DNA of 64,000 nt. It comes from Ophelia neglecta. Lineage: Eukaryota. The DNA is taken from positions 58,342,001 through 58,406,000 of the forward strand of contig OZ260664.1 of the NCBI GenBank assembly GCA_965285935.1, written 5' to 3'. Shown here one piece after another: positions 45,471-63,100 of this stretch (the first letter of the stretch is position 1; every line of letters starts with the position of its first letter). The notes under the pieces are model-generated. The model had not been told where the DNA came from, did not search any database, and saw only the letters and a program-made list of their open reading frames with translations. The translations under genes and the position numbers were made by a program.

Positions 45471-46654
45471 CCCTCAGGGCCAAATTTAATCCTCTAAGGG
45501 CCTATTTAGGATCAGAAATTTGGGCAATCTGCCTACCTTAAGAACTAGAAGAAAAAACATTGGTGTATTTTTTTATTGCCACACATTTCCTTTTACATCC
45601 GCCTTTACTACTCACACATGTTATTTACCCTCGGGGGGGGGGGGCCATATCTCCGGAACTGGAAGTCTACACAATGTTTGGACCAAAAAATTACATTTGT
45701 CTTGGACTACCATCATTTTGAAAAGTTAAATCTAAATAGAAAATCTTCAGAAAAGCAAAAACTACTCTTTTGTGTTTACAAATAGAAGCAGCAAATTTAA
45801 ATTTTGGTTCAATTTTTTTTATGCCTGACTTAATCAGTCACAATCAGACTAGTGTTTCAATAAGTTCAAGCCAAGATGTTACAGCAAACTATATTAATAG
45901 TTCAGAAATATGCTATGCACTAACTAAATTATGACAGATAATGTTAATCTGCAGGTATTGTCATGTGTTCTAATTTAAGTTGACAAATTTGTTTCCTTAC
46001 TGTTTGTTAGTGGTTTATTTTATTTTTTATGACGATGTATATGAAAACATGTGCACAATTCATTTTGCAGATGACTAATTGTATATTTTGTGACTACCAT
46101 CAGAGATAATCACATATTCATGATACTGCCAAATCAATATTGCACATTGAAAATGCACAAACATCTAGCACCAGCTGGTTTACAAGCCCTACCAGTTCCA
46201 TTGATATTAAACAGTAAATAGTTGATAGATCCTAGGGGTATATATAGCTTGTTATATAACCACATTATATTAGAACAATATGAAGTAACAACAGCTGTCC
46301 ATTTTAAAGTCTGCTCGCAATATATTCATGCAGGTGTATGATCAACCTAGTTATTGTCTTCACACATACCCTCACGTTGTCTACTGGGTGATCAGTCTAG
46401 CTTTATAAAAAAGGTTAAGGCTATTTGATGTTTCAATGCTTATTCTGTCAGTTGGAAATAATTCTCTCATGATAATTTATCTTTACAGATGAAGAGAAGG
46501 AAAGGATTTTTCATGAGTGCAATGTGACGTGGGAGAATTAGTTGGTCAATCTTCCCACAAACCTACTGAAACGTCATCACTTGAAGTCCTGGTACTTCTG
46601 ACAACCTGTACTTACCAACAGAAAACCAGAAATTTTGTGTTAATAAGCTGAGTA

Positions 46655-47302
46655 ATGCAGACAACAATGGCTTGGGCATCATATTTTAGGAGATTGGATC
46701 CTCCACTGGGTCCTGTGCCTAGTGATAACAAGGTGGAAGCTGCTCCATTTCTCAAAGCAGCCAAACAAATTGGTCCTTTCTTGGACCTACTGGGCAAAGC
46801 TTTTATCCCAGTTAAAAATGACATTGATGGAAATGTGAAGACATTGCAGAAGAAACTTTACTCCAATCCAGAAAAGTACCGCACCTTTCATGGCATGCTG
46901 ACTGATGAACAATCTGAGAGCACCAAGGCTCGCCCTTCAGCAATCTTATCTCTGTTGTGGTTAAAAAGGGCTCTACAATTCGAGTGTGAGTTCCTTTCTT
47001 TAATCATTGAAGACCATCAGACTGGTGTCCATTCTGAGAATATGGGACATCATTGTAGAGTGGCATATGACAGGACTCTTAAGCCTTACCATAGCTGGTG
47101 GACACAAAAAATATTTAGTTTGGTGTCCAGAGCACTGCCGTGGCGTAGGAGTTTCTTGAAAGCCTTGGCATACAATGTGGAAGGCAAAGATGATGAAGTT
47201 ATCGCCGATATGGCTGACTTCCAAAAGCTACTCAAGTCAAACCTTGATTCCATCCAACAGATGTACACAGATATGGGTTTAGATTTCCCTGACAAAGTAT
47301 AG
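46655..47302 (+). CDS. GLTP: Glycolipid transfer protein (GLTP-fold), single coding exon, 215 aa
   Basis: Motifs typical of GLTP: FLDLLGKAFIPVKNDIDGNVKTL (D-x3-N-x2-K sugar-recognition residues), LLWLKRALQF (Trp stacking plate), AYDRTLKPYHSW (His). Acceptor CTTTACAG at 46488 implies a 5'-UTR intron. The true start could be the ATG at 46667. Confidence 0.92.
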   Translation: MQTTMAWASYFRRLDPPLGPVPSDNKVEAAPFLKAAKQIGPFLDLLGKAFIPVKNDIDGNVKTLQKKLYSNPEKYRTFHGMLTDEQSESTKARPSAILSLLWLKRALQFECEFLSLIIEDHQTGVHSENMGHHCRVAYDRTLKPYHSWWTQKIFSLVSRALPWRRSFLKALAYNVEGKDDEVIADMADFQKLLKSNLDSIQQMYTDMGLDFPDKV

Positions 47303-54117: not shown

Positions 54118-57100
54118 ATGGCGGGAAATGATGTCATAAAACTTTCATACATGCAAAAACGTGCTCAGATGAGGAGCAGATTCACAACAGAAAATTATAA
54201 ACACAGATGGTTTGTGCTGACTAAAGAAAAGTTAACGTACCATGATGGCGGATGTGACGTAAGTTGAATGTTTTCTGTGAGAAGAGGTTTTCCTTCTTCT
54301 TCGATGTCCTGTCATTATGAATTGCATAGTAGTAGAACTATTTAATGTTGTTGAAATTGGGGCATCTAATAAATCAGTCCGTGAATATGAAACTTATCAA
54401 TAACAGTATGTGAACCCTACATAAATTAATAAGATAAAACAATTAACATAATTTGTATGATGTATGTATGCAGTTAAGATTCATGATTATAACTTTTTCC
54501 TCCAGGACCTGAAACCTGGGAAAGCAAAGGGCAATCCTATCCTTATGTCATCAATTAAGGCCGTAGAAAAAGTAGAGGCAGAAGCTGTTGGCAATAAACC
54601 AAATGCATTTCAGGTAACTGAATGGTTTGTTTAATTTGAAAATAGCTTCATTAAGGATTGCCAGAAGTTAACTTGGCTAACTATTACAGTGTTAGGTTAG
54701 CTTTTTTTTACTCTTTCAAGCTAGCCAGACCAAGTTTGTGGTAAAGCATGTGGTTTCAAGATGGTGGAGCTACTAATTCATCAACATAATTAATGGCTTA
54801 AGGTGGGGTGGAGTGAGTGTGCCTCAAAACACAACACTCGAGTGCACTTCAACAGAATTTCTGAAGTATATCTCTGAAGTTCAAATGTCCTTAAGGAGGG
54901 ACCTCTGAAAACTCTTGCTAAAGTCCCCTCCCTATTTCCATTTTTGGACTTTTAAATATCTGATTTGAGTTCTAAAAATTTGCTCACCTAATTCCTTGTT
55001 TTCTGACTAAACTGTTATGTGCCTCTGTGGTAGGCCTATGCTTTTGCCTGCTGGAAGAATATGGTTCCATCTCTAAAACACTCTAAACATTTTCATATAG
55101 ATATGGTGCCTAAAGCATTTGGGCAAAAACATCAATTCCTCCCTTGAGACTATATTACATCAACCATGTGTCATGATAGTGTGATGGCACAGGAAAAAGA
55201 GTCCCCAGATTTAAAAGGGTTTACAAACAATTACATTTTCAAATTAGCTTTATCATTGAAGGAATTTTATTCGGTCCCCAATCTTTTATTGACTAAGAGC
55301 TACTAAGCCTAGAAGAAAATACACATAAGCTGATACTGTTTTTTGTTCCAACCACTTTCAATGGTGTACAAAGACCAATGTTAACTTGCTGAATATATCA
55401 AATACCTGTAGGCGGCTAATCACGAGCTACCAAACGAGGAGCACCCAGGGAGCTCAATGGTCATGAGTCAATGGGGTCAGTAGGTATGTGTATATTATTA
55501 TAAGGACAGCTGTATGTCTGGGGTTATTGAGGATAGCAGGCATGGAAAAGAGTCTTAAGAAATGCCAAAATGGCACAAAATGGCCCAAGCCTATGAGACC
55601 CAATTGAACCAACTCGGTTGGTCTATTATATTATAGAGCAAAACATTGTCAATAGTGCTATTCTCCCATTTTTTACACCATTTTTGTCCTTGACTGGCAT
55701 CACAGGACTGTTGAAATGATTATTGAACATAATAGAAAGTCGGGCACTTGTCCTTATCAAGCGCATGAATGAAAAATTCAACTGTCGATTAAATGGAAAT
55801 GTTTGTTGATGGTCAGCAGTATCAGATGGTTTCTTTTCCAAGTTGAAGCTATGAATTTGCTTTGCTTTTGCAAAATAAAAGATACTTTGGATAAAAATAT
55901 AACTATTGATACTTTAATACTGTGACGTCTGGCTGCTTATCCTTGGAATTTTGAAGTGTTCGTCGTACCTTCTTCTCGCCGGAGAGTGCATGGCTTCTGC
56001 TGATCTTTCTCTGGGCCTATTCCTATCCTCTCCTTGCCTTGGTGCCCTTGGTGGTGATTTGTTGCTTGTTGGTTGAGTTTCTCTTGACGTTACCCTGTCT
56101 TCCTCTGGTGTCTTCAATCTTTTATTAAGGGAGGATGATGGTGCCGCTATACCCTGCCCTTTCTCCACAGAACCCGATGACAGAGACGACCCTGATGAGG
56201 ACGATGAGGAAGATGAGGATGACGACGATCGTGCCCTTTTCTGTGATGGGGGTTGGTGTGGGGTTTGATCCTGCACCACAGGCATGTTGAGGATATGTCT
56301 TACCGTACTGGTAAGCATACCTCCCCTCAACTCATCCTCTATCAAGCCGGCGAACCTGTTGTTAACGGCTCTAAATGCCTCTCCTTGCACCTTTAACTGC
56401 TCAAGTAGCATGCCCTGCTGGGTGTTCAGGCACTGCACAACTCCCTTCAGCTGGTCTATACTGGCCGCAAAGGTGCTGGCCATAGTTGTGAGGGCCTCCC
56501 TGTTCGCCTGAACCTCCCTTCTCAACTCCTCCACTGTGGGTGCCAGTGGTGCAAGGCTTCCCGCCATGGTTTTGAGCACGGAGGTGGCTTCGGCATGGTA
56601 CTGGTTGCCTGACATTCCAGTGTGGTAGGCATCCAGGCTCCTCCGCATCTCGGCAAGTTCCCCACCGACGATTCCAAGCTTCGTGGAAAGCATGTGGGCT
56701 GACTGGTCGGCAACAGGCCTGAGCCTATTGCCGCCACAATGGCGCTGGTCACGCTTGTGATCGACACTCGCACGCTGTCCCTCACGACAGACTTGATGAG
56801 CTCTGTTGCCCCAAGGTTTAGTGCTCCCCCAGATGGGCTGCCTTCCTGTGGTGCAATGTCTGCGAGGCCATCCTTGCCGATCTCCTGGAGGTGGCGGGCG
56901 CAATTCAACAAGCCCTCAGGGGGGGGGGGGTATTGATGAGCTTATGAGATCTGCAATGTCTGGCTCCGCGGCCATCTCTATGGGCAACTGAGCCTCGCTG
57001 ACGGGGGTCTGGGCCATCCTGGCCCCTGTGGCCGGGGCGGGGTCTCCTATACAACCCGACACACTCATGGATGTGTCAGTGACCCCCATTATGGTTGAGC

Positions 57101-60100
57101 GGTTCCCCGGTACCACAGGGGTGGCGTTGCCTGTCCCCGCAGCGAAACTCTTCAGTGCTGCCTCTCCACCCTCACTGTTTTTCCGGACACTCCTGTCCAC
57201 CTGCGTATCAGCGGCAGTTGTGCAGTCTTCTTTTCTAGTGTTACTGCGGCTTCTCCTCTCCCCTGTTCTCCTCCTTCTGTTGCTGCTGCTCCTCCTTCTC
57301 CTCCTCCTTTTCTCAGTAGTATGATTAATGAATGATTTCATTTTGTTATGTATATAACAAAATGAAATCATTCATTAATCATACTTATCTATCATTTAGT
57401 TAGGTATCCAACACAAATGTGTAATTTAATTCAATTATTTCCTGGTAATAATCTTGCCTGTTGCTACATGCGCAAACTGATTATATGTGATGATTGATCA
57501 GTTATGTACAACCAATGATATAAATGGGGAAAAGGTCTAATAAAAGGGCAGTTTAGGAAATACTAGATAAAGGAGGCAGTATTATGAAATTTATGCAATA
57601 TTCAAGCATGACTGATGCAGATAGTGAACCTGTGCAATTTTTCGGAACACAAATCTGACATTTAGAAAAGTGATCACTATACTTGTAATATAGTATATAC
57701 TGTTTTATAGTTCTATTTGGGTAGTAAATAGTTATACTATTGATATTTGGGACCTACTAGTATGCTCTGTACTTGTGATTGCTAAAATACTGTTACTTAT
57801 ATATTACTGTTATCAATCATGATTGGCTTGCCTATATGGATCTGAAATTCTTAAGTACATGTAACTATGAATGTTTTGGTACAACTCAAGAAATAAATAA
57901 ATATATATATAAATATATACCCTGATGAATGGCTGGCTAAGCCAGTTATGAAACTTGAAGTAGGAACAAAGATGAGCAATATTTGAGATTGTTTTGTTTT
58001 TATTTATTTATTTATTTATATAAATATATATATATATTACCTGCAGATTGTGTAAAATAAACTTATCAGGGCCACCTTTATGTAGGACTTCTTACAGGCC
58101 ATTCTCTTTTTCCTTTTATTGTTATGAATTTTTCCGAAATCCAACGTATGCCGTTACACATATTTTTATCATAATTATTTGCCATCATAAATGTTAAGTA
58201 GGAGAAGTTTCCATAGTCGAAAATTGCAGTCTTAGAACATTATACTATTAACTTTGAAGAGAGTTTGAAGCTAAGACTGGATATTGACATGGCCTCACTT
58301 GATTGGCTAGCGTATGCATTATAAATGTACATATATACTGGCAATAAAGTAGGTCTCTGATTTATAGCACTCCCATGATATATTTGAAAACTGTGCAACA
58401 GTGGTGAATTGTGTAAATTCTCAAGGAGTAGTAGTGATATATGGTGATTCCACCCTCAGGTGCGTGAGGGGGGGGGGGGGGTTACACATGTTTGTTACCA
58501 AAAATTAGTAGTCCAAACACACATATATAATAGGTAAATGCTGACTGCTGCCTGTTTTATACATTTAGCTTCCCTTGTACAGTAACAAGATAATGCTGTT
58601 ATAAATAGTGCAAACAAGGAAGTTTAAAGTGGTGGATTCAGTATGTACGTGCATATTTAATTGTGTCAACTTGCTTGAAAATAATTGGACTGATAATATA
58701 GACAGGCTTAGGACTAGAGGTGATCATACTGTATAGATAAATAAGTGAGGAGAGTCACATATATTGTGATCATATTAGGTAGCCATGAATGTACAAAGCT
58801 GTGAAAACATATATAATATGTGAATAAACATACCTTTATAAATAATCAATATTATTTTTGTATAAATCTTGTATATATATATATATGGATACATATTTGC
58901 TATTATTTTGAGAGCAAGTGGCCAAGTGATCCACTTTTACATACAATAGACATATAATGCCTATATACATATACAGTGTATTGACATCTGTATAGACATG
59001 TATATAAACATGTATATTAACATATATATATATATATAATGCCTTTATACCTATACAGTGTATGGACATGAAGACACCCCTTATAAATGGTGGCTAAATG
59101 ATTTACCAAAAACTTGCTGGATTTCAGGTTTTCAGACAAATTGATCATACTGGCTAGTGAATGCCTCCAAAAATGCAAGCTATCAAACAGCAGTGCCTAT
59201 GTCAAGATAGCTCTGACACAACATTATTGTACTTTGTCCTGTCTGTCCTGCATATTACTCAGGAGGAAGCCTTTCTAACAACATCACATTATATCAGATA
59301 TATCAGACAACTGACCAATGTAGCTCCATCTGCTGTAAACCCAAAGCTCCTGAGCCATGAGCAGTTAGTGCATATGCCAAAAGGGCTCATACATGTATTT
59401 CCCATTGGCCCAGAAATAACTGGCAAGCACTATACTCTTTTATGTATTATAATTATTTTTGTAAAACATTGATGAAGCACCTTTCCAAAAGTATCTCGAA
59501 GGGCTGTACATATATACATAAACATGGTATGCTAAATATATAATATGGATTATTCCATACAAAAGTTAAAAACATTTCTTGTTACAAAAAGGTAAAACTT
59601 ACTGATGTGCAAAATAATAAGACTTAAATTGATACAGATAACAATACATGAGAGATAAATCTTTATGAATTTATAAAAACGACTACACTAATGATATGCC
59701 TGTATGCTTTATATCATAAGGACACCTGGATAAGCATTTCTTTAGTTTGGATTTAAAATACATACAGTTAAACTCTGACTAGATCTTAAGTCATATGAGA
59801 GTTCCAAAGAGCTGATACACTAGTGGTAAACCTGCATGAGCCATATGTTACTGCCCTCGACCTAACATATATTTTACCTCTTCCTGGCTCGAGTCACACA
59901 ATCATAATAGCCAGGTTTTCTGCTCTCTGATCGAAGCTCTGAGTGGTCTTCACAAATGTAGCGAATTTTTTGAGCACAGCGCTTGTTGCTGGTCCCTGTC
60001 ACTGTCTTGAATCCTTGATTTGGTCCTACTGAACAGGTGGACTTGAATTTGAATCAGGTGTACAGAAGTTGACCCTGTTGTCATAAGAGATGAGTAGGCC

Positions 60101-63100
60101 CTGGGATGAATGACACGAGATCTCTGCCCCTCTCTCCCCCTCTCTCCCCCACCCCTACCCCTCTTGGGCAGTTTGGGAAGAAATACACTCCTTGTGTGGT
60201 CTTAAAGTACCAGAAGTTGCCTATTATCTTAGTGATTTAATCACACACAAAATTAATATTAACTTATGATGGTAACCTGTGCATGCTGTGGGAGAGTTAA
60301 GTAAGTTACCAGAGTTTGTTTGTATAATGGTAGAATTGATAGGTAACCAGACACTGAAGTGCCTATAGATGATCTTGTACAGTGTTCATATTTGCTATTA
60401 TTTGGAGAGCAATAAAGGTCAGCAACGAAAGGAGGTGTGCGTAAGGTATGTCTTCCCTGAAGCTCTGTCGGGGACCGATGGGTCAGAAATCCTGATGAAT
60501 GCTGTTCACACCATGTATAGTCTTAGACCGGTCAACACTGTCCAAGCTAGCAGTTCACAGTTAGCGATCTCAGCAATGGGTGTGAAAGAATACTAAAAAA
60601 GAAATAATGAATACACTTGTTCATTGAAACTTGATATGGCCAAGTGATCCACTTTTATCTAAGCTGAATGAATTATTACATGGAACCTTTGAAAAAGAAT
60701 ACTCTATGTATTAAACTGCTTTTTCCTTTATTAAGTCTAGTGTCTTTATTATTTGTAGATTGTGTATAAAGATGAAAAACTTGGAGAGACCTTCATTTTG
60801 TATATAGTGGCAGTAACTGAAGAAGACCAAACTGAATGGATCAAAGTACTTAAAAAAAGTAGGTTTATGTTCTACTTTTCTATATACATCAGACATTACA
60901 TTTTGACCTGATCACAAAAGCAGGATGGCCAGCACAATTTGTTGGGTAAAATGAATCGAATCTGAATCTCGACATCGGCCGATCATATAGAATCCTCAGA
61001 TTTGACCTTGGTGCCCTTTTTCAAGGTCATTTCACTAAAATCATGATTTCTGCCTTCACTTTAACAGCGAGCACCCAAATCCAAAATGGTAACCTATATG
61101 AAAGTATTTCTTGGGCAATGGATACCACAGATGTCTATACTTGGACTTCAGGATAGAGAATAATTTGACAAAAATATATTGCATTTTATTCCATTCCTTC
61201 CCTGTCCCGTACTGATAAATTCAATAAGTTTGAATACTATTAATTATTTATTAGCTGCTAAAATTTTGGGTAATTGAATGAAATTTCACTTTAATCACTA
61301 AAATGAGCACATTATAACTTGCTAAAGACTAAAAAACCGTCAGTTACCAGTAATCAATGATTTTTTTACATAAATTGCCATTATTCATTAATAACTAAAC
61401 CCCATCCAACCCCACAAACACATTTATGTAAGGGATGTCATCAAATTATCAATGTGTAGCAAAAGAGGAACATTGCTTTTTTCTTTCCAGACCCTCCTTC
61501 ACCCCCTAAAAGAAAAAAAAAAAGAAAAAAAAGATTTTTTATTTGGTTTTCAACATTTTTAATAGGTCTCACTTTAGGTGAAATTTAGGCTGTCCCTAGA
61601 TTTGGATAATTGGCATTTAAAACAAGAAAATGAAGTAGTTTTATTCAATAAGTAGTTGACCAAGCATACTTGATATAGATCTAGGCTTTTAAACTTGTAT
61701 TTTGTCCAGTTCAGAAAGCCATAATCCCTTGGCCACGATCGACAGCAGCAGGTTTGGATCACAGCCAAAATCCATTTCATTCAAGATAATAATGGCACGG
61801 AAAATCTTCTTCATAATACAGATTTTTCCTGCTGTTTTAAGTGCAAAATAACCATCTAGTAATTTGTAGTCAGCAGGGCATTTTTATATCATTAATCAGA
61901 AAGAAAGAATGTGGAACGAATTACCTTAAAGTATGAACTTATTTTTATTATGACATCACATAATATGAAGCATGATGTCCTCATGCTAAGCTTGTCCTAG
62001 CCATCATGAAGAGATCAAGTAGGGTAAAGAGGATGGTAAGTTGATGAGGGTGTGTATGTAATGCAATTATTGAAAGTTATAACTGGCAAATTACTTGCCC
62101 AATGTCTAATTTATTTGTTGATTATGCCAAAAATTTGAAATTTTCTAGTTAAGTCAATATATAGTGCCTTCGATTTTTGCAAACAAAGTTTAAATTATTC
62201 TCTTCATTCGACATCTGCCTATGACCAGTCTTATAGGCTGGGGCCTGAAATTAAAATTGTGGGCATGCAACTGATTTCATATAGATACGACAAATTTGAG
62301 GTGTTACACCAGGTATAACTGATATATACACATACAACCTCTACCTTTCTTTTCTTGTTAAACATTCTGCACCCATGTATGCATGTGTACACCTATAATC
62401 AGGTGTCTACCTAGGGCAATATTTGAGCGGGCAAAAAAAATCTAACATTCTTAAAATTAGTACAATATTTCAACACCAGTACCCAAAATGTGCAACAATT
62501 CACATGTAGTGATTCGTAAGATAAAGAAACTCCCCTTTCGGAAATATAAATGAGATTTTGCAAATCCAGTGAGTAAATATCCCCATGTCTTTCGAAAGCC
62601 CCATCTTTCTCCCTAGTGTGATCTTTGTATAACTGGTATGTCTGGTAGCCTTTGAAGCTTTCTCATCTGACAAGATGAAAACAAGACATGTTACCAGCTC
62701 TGGAGTAATAAAACTATAATATTCACTCTCCTTATTGCCAGCTGCACAAGACAAGAATGCCAGTTTCAATGACAAGCATCACTGTGGAAGTTGGGACACA
62801 AAGAAAGGACACTACACATGTTGTAGTAGTATCAACAAGAGAGACGAAGGATGTGTGAATTGTACAAACGGCACTCCTCAAAGCAATAACCCTACATTTG
62901 GTTAGTAGTATACTTAACATTAACAAATTACTGATGTCATACCCTTCAATCTTGACCAATTCACAAACAGAAAGCTTTCATGTTAAGAATCCTGTGTATG
63001 ACATAGATAGGTGTCAAAGAGGTGATGGATTAATCCTATGTATTTATATGTAATATTTCAATGGTTAGGCATTTATTTATATGTTGGACACTTTTTGGTA

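Follow-up and report, generated by a model that had tools for sequence, protein, structure and literature searches.

Results

The intron and the inserted piece

The window analysed here is the whole 64,000-nucleotide stretch of Ophelia neglecta DNA, and the features of the locus are collected in Table 1. A Tec-family kinase gene on the plus strand hosts the insertion; its PH and BTK-motif exons lie within the window, both below the Pfam cut-off, and SH3-, SH2- and kinase-like exons, recognised by motif, follow downstream. The preliminary description had placed a GC-rich, coding-like reading frame antisense within an AT-rich intron of such a gene, and this was confirmed: the inserted piece lies on the minus strand, with a GC content of 52–59% in positions 56001–57000 against 30–38% in the flanking bins. 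Three overlapping minus-strand frames (151, 139 and 333 codons) contain the peptides quoted there.

Alignment to an open copy showed that positions 55926–57320 correspond to codons 247–710 (464 codons) of a 765-codon ORF3. The two frameshifts reported earlier, one of them at a G-run, were recovered in this alignment as breaks at ~56918–56930 and ~56730. Since the piece has no ORF3 start, zinc fingers or end, and carries two frame breaks, it is ordinary retrotransposon debris. The span first given for it (55914 to 57385) held only approximately, as the true end is at 55926 and the last four residues of the frame originally read derive from host and junction sequence; the Met at 57371 sits in the hairpin and host repeat, outside the gene.

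The nearest relative of the piece is copy A (G000:C7:38588258-38589656), on the same contig as the window, with 96.6% identity and a frame likewise broken at the same G homopolymer; identity to the full-length copies B and C is 93%. Neither frame break of the window could be assigned to the locus from read contigs (three runs, one sample). The junction at 55926 was spanned by a 581-base contig in all three runs of this one sample, which is possibly the assembly's own. In one run, the junction is also crossed by a contig with 7 differences, so both haplotypes may have the insert. Nine synonymous and 13 non-synonymous changes are private to the window piece (P=0.08 against neutral), which alone is no proof of neutral decay.

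Table 1. Position of features at the insertion locus (window coordinates)
Feature	Position	Strand	Basis or remark
Intron of Tec-family kinase gene with the insertion	54615..60758	+	Between PH-domain exons; ends approximate
Host repeat, left half	55708..55920	.	Contiguous with right half in other copies
ATAC beside LTR tip, candidate 4-bp integrase target	55917..55920	+	Inferred; family 4-bp duplications
LTR U3 tip, TGTGACG	55921..55927	+	Family LTR bases 1–7, opposite orientation to ORF3 piece; last 2 bases shared with piece
ORF3 internal fragment (Ty3/Gypsy LTR retrotransposon)	55926..57320	-	Identity to copies A, B, C
ORF3 poly-Ser and Arg/Ser-rich basic tail	55926..56282	-	55 codons missing
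ORF3 helical/coiled-coil core, ~codons 415–591	56283..56813	-	Alignment, dN/dS, all-helical model; F.GLIEDE.RGG motif at end; split by ~56730 break
G homopolymer with frame break	56918..56930	+	Length differs between copies
New hairpin arm, inverted local copy of adjoining host repeat	57318..57349	+	2–3 bases shared with ORF3 piece
Hairpin loop GTAT (reverse complement of ATAC)	57350..57353	+	Flipped relative to host-repeat norm
Host repeat, right half, including original hairpin arm	57354..57520	.	Old ~430-bp dispersed repeat

The parent Ty3/Gypsy element

A search of the genome for further copies, suggested in the preliminary description, yielded copies A, B and C and allowed the element ends, the 4-bp duplications and gag-pol to be defined. 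The parent is a young 12.4-kb Ty3/Gypsy element. Two full-length copies (B and C), located elsewhere in the genome, are 98.8% alike over 12.4 kb, have LTR pairs with 0 and 1 mismatches, and keep gag, pol and ORF3 open (597, 1317 and 774 codons). Pfam domains occur in the Gypsy order zf-CCHC, protease, RVT_1, RT_RNaseH and rve. The layout is LTR-PBS-gag-pol(PR-RT-RH-IN)-ORF3-PPT-LTR, with a sense-oriented ORF3 lying between pol and the 3' LTR; the direct LTRs have TG...CA ends, and PBS and PPT are present. The PBS is presumably of the tRNA-Leu type. An exact 4-bp target-site duplication flanked six of the eight insertions with both ends seen and one with a single mismatch flanked the other two; the duplications of the family mostly start with ATA. 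LTRs measure 1.9–2.2 kb, and tandem arrays are found in two families.

Four ORF3 subfamilies are present in this genome. Of 14 finger matches, 11 lie directly downstream of a substantial gag-pol, one follows a pol remnant only and two follow neither; both additional loci of the fourth subfamily (2/2) also have gag-pol upstream.

These results alter the initial classification of the locus. The frame had been called an orphan, and an open homologous ORF3 exists in full-length elements of the same genome. Lack of a reverse transcriptase or integrase nearby holds for the window and fails for the parent element, which has both. The piece is mobile-element coding DNA as proposed, from an element that is recognisable as Ty3/Gypsy. 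A Gag/ORF1-like nature was not supported: the element has a separate gag, profile comparison with that gag gave a probability of 0.7%, Pfam found in ORF3 no capsid, RRM, esterase or CCHC domain of Gag or of a LINE or DIRS ORF1, and the core model contains only long helices. For the suggested viral structural or phosphoprotein nature no match was found (BFVD, E<=0.001), and the piece is a fragment of the third ORF of a Ty3/Gypsy element. An endogenous virus gene and a host processed pseudogene were rejected, and a LINE-made processed copy was discarded on the lack of a poly(A) tail and of a flanking direct duplication.

Junctions, hairpin and origin of the insertion

The perfect 32-bp hairpin noted at the locus was confirmed (57318–57349 / 57354–57385; z = -14), and none of 200 shuffles folded equally well. 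The proposal that it caps the element or gene was not. The hairpin is a by-product of the junction and not part of the element, and consists of an old host repeat together with its inverted local copy. Two substitutions are common to both arms and occur in 0/13 other rows of the host repeat, none of which has a hairpin or insert at this site. An element terminus or TIR element was rejected, the hairpin being absent here from copies A, B and C as well as from the 13 host-repeat rows. As this junction shows, insertion can generate a perfect hairpin as a by-product, which may then mislead a scan.

The 8-mers of the 55926 junction match copies A and C at one place, the PPT/LTR boundary. The LTR tip comprises 7 bases, 5 of them not otherwise explained, with a rough chance expectation of 0.002–0.006 for a match that was noticed post hoc. 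Overlaps of 2–3 bases occur at both ends of the insert, no poly(A) is present, and loose ends occur at 57354. No second copy with the same ends as the window insert was found in the genome search.

We give an aberrant one-ended integration as much credence as doubt. A template-switched cDNA retaining only the U3 tip would have been joined by integrase, through that tip, to one strand at ATAC. At the opposite host end, which carried a 4-base overhang, sealing would have formed a hairpin; after reopening ~36 bases from there, this end would have been ligated to the second cDNA end via 2–3 shared bases. The LTR tip, the ATAC flank and the flipped loop support this model. For the target-site reading, the host repeat must have lost 8 bases in a deletion private to this locus (0/13 other rows), and none of 13 distinct flanks of the family is ATAC. 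In the available text of PMC5041404, HIV and ASLV integrations with one normal end and a truncated end with host inversions are described. These one-ended integrations and the fold-back insertions at breaks in PMC11724301, as far as the sources are drawn on here, have in common with the window one LTR-type end, a truncated other end, either orientation, host inversion and short overlaps; the window insertion differs in that only 7 LTR bases are left and a germ-line retrotransposon event is read from one junction.

A realistic possibility, which we would stop short of calling probable, is insertion by repair of a double-strand break. The hairpin would then stem from a strand switch of DNA synthesis at a short inverted match within the host repeat; 1.4 kb would have been copied from cDNA or a genomic copy before the ends were rejoined, and the LTR-tip match would be chance filler. 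This course would suit the short overlaps without poly(A), the 4-base inverted match that some host-repeat copies have at the site, and the presence of the nearest relative on the same contig; templated inverted duplications of 5–34 bp and capture of retrotransposon cDNA at breaks in yeast are described in the portion of PMC11724301 considered. However, a simple fold-back would leave the loop in the host orientation, whereas it is flipped, and the filler matches the LTR terminus exactly. Domestication of the piece as an expressed antisense gene, or its capture by a hairpin-ended element, is most improbable: a 333-codon frame remains open and both haplotypes may carry the insert, but the piece lacks a start, acceptor and fingers, has two frame breaks, and neither hairpin nor insert recurs in the host-repeat rows or with these ends elsewhere.

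Architecture and conservation of the ORF3 protein

The intact ORF3 protein has two C2H2 fingers, a disordered linker, a long helical core (180 aa) and a Ser/Arg-rich basic tail. Two C-x2-4-C...H-x3-5-H motifs were present in eight of 11 family proteins and one in the other three, with Cys and His conserved in the alignment. The fingers start at residue 5–21, i.e. at the N-terminus, and scored 0.94–0.95 against C2H2 clusters in the protein atlas, falling under the Pfam C2H2 cut-off. The core gave an all-helical predicted model (pLDDT 84); a mildly hydrophobic helix precedes the heptad region. No 19-residue window reached a hydropathy of 1.6 in any of the 11 family proteins (maxima 0.73–1.59), and the hydropathy peak is not C-terminal in the three proteins from this genome. 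Basic NLS-like runs occur in the family proteins. A polypyrimidine tract plus AG, resembling a splice acceptor, lies 0–7 bases upstream of the ORF3 ATG in all four subfamilies; a strict pattern detected no splice donor between the 5' LTR and the gag start in three elements.

The dN/dS ratios were 0.07–0.09 for the fingers, 0.085–0.11 for the core (0.085 for the window core against copy C) and 0.21–0.53 for the tail. Values of about 0.1 indicate strong purifying selection on fingers and core. The layout of the parent with its 4-bp duplications, the domain order of ORF3, this selection and the copying of the hairpin from the flanking host repeat we regard as practically certain.

ORF3 belongs to no Pfam family, in keeping with the absence of a catalogued family anticipated earlier. 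Elsewhere, 25 hits were obtained at E<=0.001, leaving 23 relatives without the repeat proteins P0018 and P0026, several of them with the same order of fingers, linker, core and basic tail; their linkage to Gypsy elements in other organisms is assumed. Word-indexed searches gave 0/7984 homologous candidates for the full ORF3 and 1/2024 (P0002) for the finger alignment, and the core alignment matched 0/7985 proteins of 1135–3240 aa, a length range that is uninformative. Viral contigs gave 0/64 and 0/132 pattern hits, and metagenome contigs 1/585 (L091, which at 2.4 kb is too short for context). At E<=0.001 the core had no match in PDB by Foldseek, searched with a weak model, or in BFVD. The best hit of the VIA fold search (Z 10.1, 3% identity) is in the generic range for helical models, and PDB sequence matches were generic coiled coils. 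The missing fold match is not evidence for a new fold. Bornavirus P24 scored 0.77 in the protein atlas, below chance level.

Discussion

Possible role of ORF3

Taken together, the window piece is very probably the truncated, frameshifted mid-part of a Ty3/Gypsy ORF3, left by a likely aberrant insertion from which the hairpin also arose; the intact parent ORF3 is a predicted nuclear regulator, likely of its own LTR. ORFs behind pol are usually taken for env, and few have a tested function. A conserved finger/coiled-coil/RS family that is strongly selected in young elements and apparently LTR-coupled provides a test of Tat-, Rev- or anti-silencing-type regulators in animal Gypsy elements.

One important question is whether ORF3 is coupled to the LTR or to gag-pol. 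Element I has gag-pol DNA 96% identical to that of copy C, yet its own LTR and an ORF3 merely 40% identical, which argues that ORF3 travelled with the LTR and not with gag-pol. This cassette swap is a single, decayed case (n=1), and as its second finger lacks the last His it may be a dead-end recombinant.

ORF3 is probably a nuclear self-regulator of some sort, and it may quite possibly be directed at the LTR. It is predicted to be translated from a spliced subgenomic RNA and to oligomerise via the helical core; the fingers would bind LTR DNA or LTR-derived RNA, and the basic Ser/Arg tail would recruit host transcription or RNA-processing factors. More speculatively, and with considerable doubt, it could represent a widespread and undescribed class of accessory genes occupying the env slot of Gypsy elements, encoding a zinc-finger/coiled-coil/RS LTR-specific trans-activator or anti-silencer on a swappable LTR+ORF3 chassis that takes gag-pol cassettes, with the window junction as a fossil of integrase-driven hairpin sealing. 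If so, a simple retrotransposon would have a regulatory circuit like that of a complex retrovirus.

A Rev/CERV-like factor that exports unspliced genomic RNA by binding an RNA element within the gag-pol intron seems rather unlikely. The acceptor-like sequence before ORF3 would imply a need for such export, the basic Ser/Arg tail and the predicted oligomer-type helical core would suit it, and CERV of Cer1 is a precedent for a protein of this kind made from a spliced mRNA, in the available text of PMC10309623. However, a response element within gag-pol fits poorly with element I, where gag-pol is the same and ORF3 is 40% identical, and CERV's C4-type loop and its H, M and G domains, compared by description from that text, are unlike C2H2 fingers and long helices.

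ORF3 is likely neither Gag nor Env. An Env-like or fusogenic protein, which the env slot, the splice acceptor, the heptad region with the mildly hydrophobic helix ahead of it, and weak profile matches to coronavirus heptad mimics (amid many generic coiled coils) might suggest, is very improbable given N-terminal zinc fingers with no signal peptide (judged by motif and hydropathy), no transmembrane-grade segment in 11/11 proteins, no C-terminal anchor, NLS-like basic runs and the lack of a match to any viral fold at E<=0.001.

Comparison with known systems

In the literature searched, including the available parts of PMC6238403, PMC8556966, PMC8220671 and PMC12440569, a Gypsy ORF3 with C2H2 fingers and a coiled coil is undescribed; Repbase, subscription journals and supplements may contain such elements. 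The bdelloid elements Vesta, Juno and TelKA likewise carry a family-specific ORF3 on the sense strand, located between pol and the 3' LTR and expected from spliced RNA, and show modular exchange (PMC5408684, main text). Their ORF3s are fusion glycoproteins, TM proteins, GDSL esterases, DEDDy nucleases and plain coiled coils, whereas here two C2H2 fingers, a 180-aa helical core and a Ser/Arg tail are combined; the word "zinc" is absent from that main text. CERV of the C. elegans element Cer1, as presented in the part of PMC10309623 drawn on, resembles ORF3 as a Gypsy nuclear accessory protein from a spliced mRNA with an NLS, a Cys-based finger and a predicted oligomeric state, these features being predicted for ORF3. 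By description, CERV is set apart by a leucine zipper in common with Gag, by H, M and G-protein-like domains and by a C4-type loop, in contrast to the separate ORF after pol, C2H2 fingers and all-helical core of ORF3. Plant Grande gene23 and PvRetro13 ORF2 are also conserved extra ORFs of unknown function between pol and the 3' LTR; some plant additional ORFs are nuclear, one has an SMC-type coiled coil, and a role like that of retroviral accessory proteins was proposed (PMC7264820, in part). The plant nuclear examples in the same source are antisense with their own promoter, whereas ORF3 here is sense with a putative splice acceptor.

Origin of the window piece

The window contains the GC-rich island of the preliminary description, whose quoted peptides are encoded in three overlapping frames of the minus strand, as well as the G-run and a perfect hairpin of 32 bp. 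The piece was also confirmed to lie antisense within a Tec-family kinase intron, since the exons of the host gene place this gene on the plus strand (in the window, PH and BTK-motif exons with Pfam scores below cut-off; further downstream, exons of the SH3, SH2 and kinase type, recognised by motif). A DNA search of the genome revealed 10 further loci similar to the GC-rich part (74–97%); similarity ends at both limits of the piece, beyond which the other copies keep matching one another. The proposed search for copies, element ends, target-site duplications and an autonomous partner yielded two full-length elements, B and C, 98.8% alike across 12.4 kb and flanked on both sides by ATAT. They are organised as LTR (1.9 kb, TG...CA), PBS, gag (597 codons), pol (1317 codons), ORF3 (a stop-to-stop frame of 774 codons, 765 of them from Met onwards), PPT and LTR. 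This is a Ty3/Gypsy element, because Pfam detected a PNMA-type gag with CCHC followed by protease, RT, RNase H and integrase; its primer is presumably tRNA-Leu. The LTR pairs of B and C differ by 0 and 1 substitutions, array length aside, indicating that both are young. The suspected mobile-element origin thus held, but not the Gag/ORF1-like kind, as the piece is ORF3 of an element with its own gag.

The window locus is a dead ORF3 fragment with a junction hairpin. It corresponds to ORF3 codons 247–710 (96.6% identical to its nearest relative, copy A, and 93% to B and C), is broken in frame at two places, and has no acceptor, ATG, fingers or stop.

Coordinates of the features (window positions, or contigs of the genome searched, G000)
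Feature	Location	Strand
ORF3 piece (copy W)	55926-57320	-
Frame breaks	~56918-56930; ~56730	
Host-repeat halves	55708-55920; 57354-57520	
New hairpin arm	57318-57349	
Hairpin loop (GTAT)	57350-57353	
Original hairpin arm	57354-57385	
216-codon open frame	46652-47299	+
Copy A (L021-L022)	C7:38584092-38591816	
Copy B	C2:98277510-98289890	
Copy C	C1:148937998-148950308	
K-type copies, ORF3 open, gag and pol broken	C1 46.8, C2 38.7, C2 62.0 (two), C8 56.6, C8 72.9 Mb	
Distant Gypsy element (L033:3640-4344)	C1 ~31.584-31.590 Mb	-
LINE-like ORF in element I (L076)	C12 ~73.620-73.624 Mb	antisense
Two GRQC ORFs (L027-L028)	C7 ~43.49-43.50 Mb	-

Architecture, relatives and selection of ORF3

In ORF3, two Cys/His fingers (residues 5–58) are followed by a disordered linker containing basic stretches, then by a core of ~180 residues, a poly-Ser segment and a basic tail of the Ser/Arg type. 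From a 23-row alignment, the core was predicted to fold into five helices (mean pLDDT 84, pTM 0.48); the suggested fold search retrieved only generic matches. Finger and core searches revealed subfamily I (contig C12, 619 aa, 40% identical), the K-type subfamily (7 loci, ~670 aa, 29–32% identical) and subfamily R/S, with a core match in R (E 1.5e-6) behind a stop. Directly upstream of the finger matches, gag-pol was substantial in 11 of 14 cases, a remnant in one and absent in two. A pyrimidine tract plus AG lies 0–7 bases 5' of the ORF3 ATG in all four subfamilies.

The core profile retrieved 25 proteins at E≤0.001 among 1.84 billion, two of which were discarded as repeat proteins. In several of the others the same succession recurs, namely fingers, then a linker, a core that ends in F.GLIEDE.RGG and a basic tail; none of these relatives has an informative name or a Pfam family above cut-off. 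Rotifers and plants are known to have Gypsy elements with a non-env ORF3 (PMC5408684 and PMC7264820, respectively), and no published account of the finger/coiled-coil/RS family was found in the openly accessible articles searched. Judging from sequence, the parent gene would be a non-env ORF3, an already known kind, in an apparently new form.

When copies W, A, D and E were compared with copy C (B being too close to inform), dN/dS was 0.07–0.09 in the fingers, 0.085–0.11 in the core, 0.26–0.36 in the linker and 0.21–0.53 in the tail. In six K-type copies, disruptions numbered 6 across 11.7 kb of ORF3 and 57 across 32.7 kb of gag-pol (P 0.001); this is only a hint of selection, since it was by their ORF3 that these copies, which are related to each other, were detected. 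The same ascertainment bias remains for the tabulated K-type copies with ORF3 open.

Possible function of ORF3

The gag-pol of element I is 96% identical in DNA to that of C over 5.9 kb, from the final ~37 LTR bases to a purine tract ~130 bases past the pol stop, whereas LTR and ORF3 are different. Hence, gag-pol was swapped, and ORF3 remained associated with the LTR. This one decayed element (n=1) suggests that the partner of ORF3 may be LTR DNA or LTR-derived RNA rather than Gag, Pol or a gag-pol intron. The LTRs are long, with arrays of 28-bp units in C and 59-bp units in K that could be ORF3 binding sites; no tandem array was present in the scanned part of the element I LTR.

The reading that we tentatively prefer, at somewhat below even chances, is that ORF3 is an LTR-directed trans-regulator. 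Tat, Rev and Tas serve as comparison for the readings considered here. Position, selection, architecture and the acceptor-like site are observed; we infer that ORF3 would be expressed from spliced RNA and that its protein would be nuclear, oligomerise and act on LTR DNA or LTR-derived RNA. An exporter resembling Rev or CERV, the latter a tested nuclear regulator (excerpt of PMC10309623), ranks second and is rather unlikely. That ORF3 is an Env is very improbable, as no ORF3-family protein scanned has a transmembrane-grade segment.

Junctions and hairpin

On either side of the piece lies one half of an old dispersed repeat of ~430 bp (581 candidates, 40 scored, mostly 70–81% identical); the halves are contiguous in other copies. 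The 55926 junction was spanned by a 581-base contig in all three runs (one sample, possibly the assembly's own). The right repeat half was copied in inverted orientation to give the new hairpin arm, which is joined to the ORF3 piece via 2–3 shared bases; both arms share two substitutions seen in none of 13 other repeat rows (two duplicate pairs among them), indicating that the copying was local. At the other end, ATAC on the plus strand is followed by TGTGACG, identical to the initial 7 LTR bases, and by antisense ORF3, which shares CG with it, and the sole match of the junction 8-mer in copies A and C is the PPT/LTR boundary. Target duplications of the Gypsy family are 4 bp; 8 of 13 distinct left flanks begin with ATA and none is ATAC. 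The loop is the same 4-mer as ATAC, flipped relative to the repeat norm, the outcome expected of sealing a 4-base 5' overhang.

These junctions fit an aberrant one-ended integration, in which an integrase-type LTR-tip end would have been joined at ATAC and the 4-base 5' overhang of the host sealed as a hairpin. Excerpts of PMC5041404 describe aberrant integrations with one normal and one truncated end, element DNA in either orientation and host inversions, which the window junction resembles in its single putative LTR-type end and host inversion. Against this, the LTR tip is only 7 bases, the match was spotted post hoc and a private 8-base deletion is required. Break repair with an inter-strand switch, a process described in part of PMC11724301, is a nearly equally plausible origin of the insertion.

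Other observations

Copy A is aberrant: the 5' LTR is missing, a 129-bp pol piece is copied at the 5' end and an A-run replaces 2 kb of pol. B and C, unlike A, carry a tandem duplication of ~147 bp within the linker (ORF3 codons ~150–245) that preserves the frame. B, C, D and I have a second polypurine tract ~110–140 bases past the pol stop, where C and I diverge; possibly this tract is a recombination hot spot and represents a central or relic PPT. In element I, the LINE-like ORF (1181 codons) lies between ORF3 and the 3' LTR, with a perfect 138-bp direct duplication on both sides. The more distant Gypsy element (RT 46–57% identical) has a different ORF of 235 codons past pol that encodes two C2H2 fingers of the classical type (Pfam zf-C2H2, E 2.6e-8); nested just downstream is a fragment from the studied family. 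Two ORFs of 258–264 codons adjoining ORF3 remnants contain a GRQC motif, which we take to recall herpes-tegument-type cysteine proteases. The 216-codon frame in the window presumably resembles glycolipid transfer protein.
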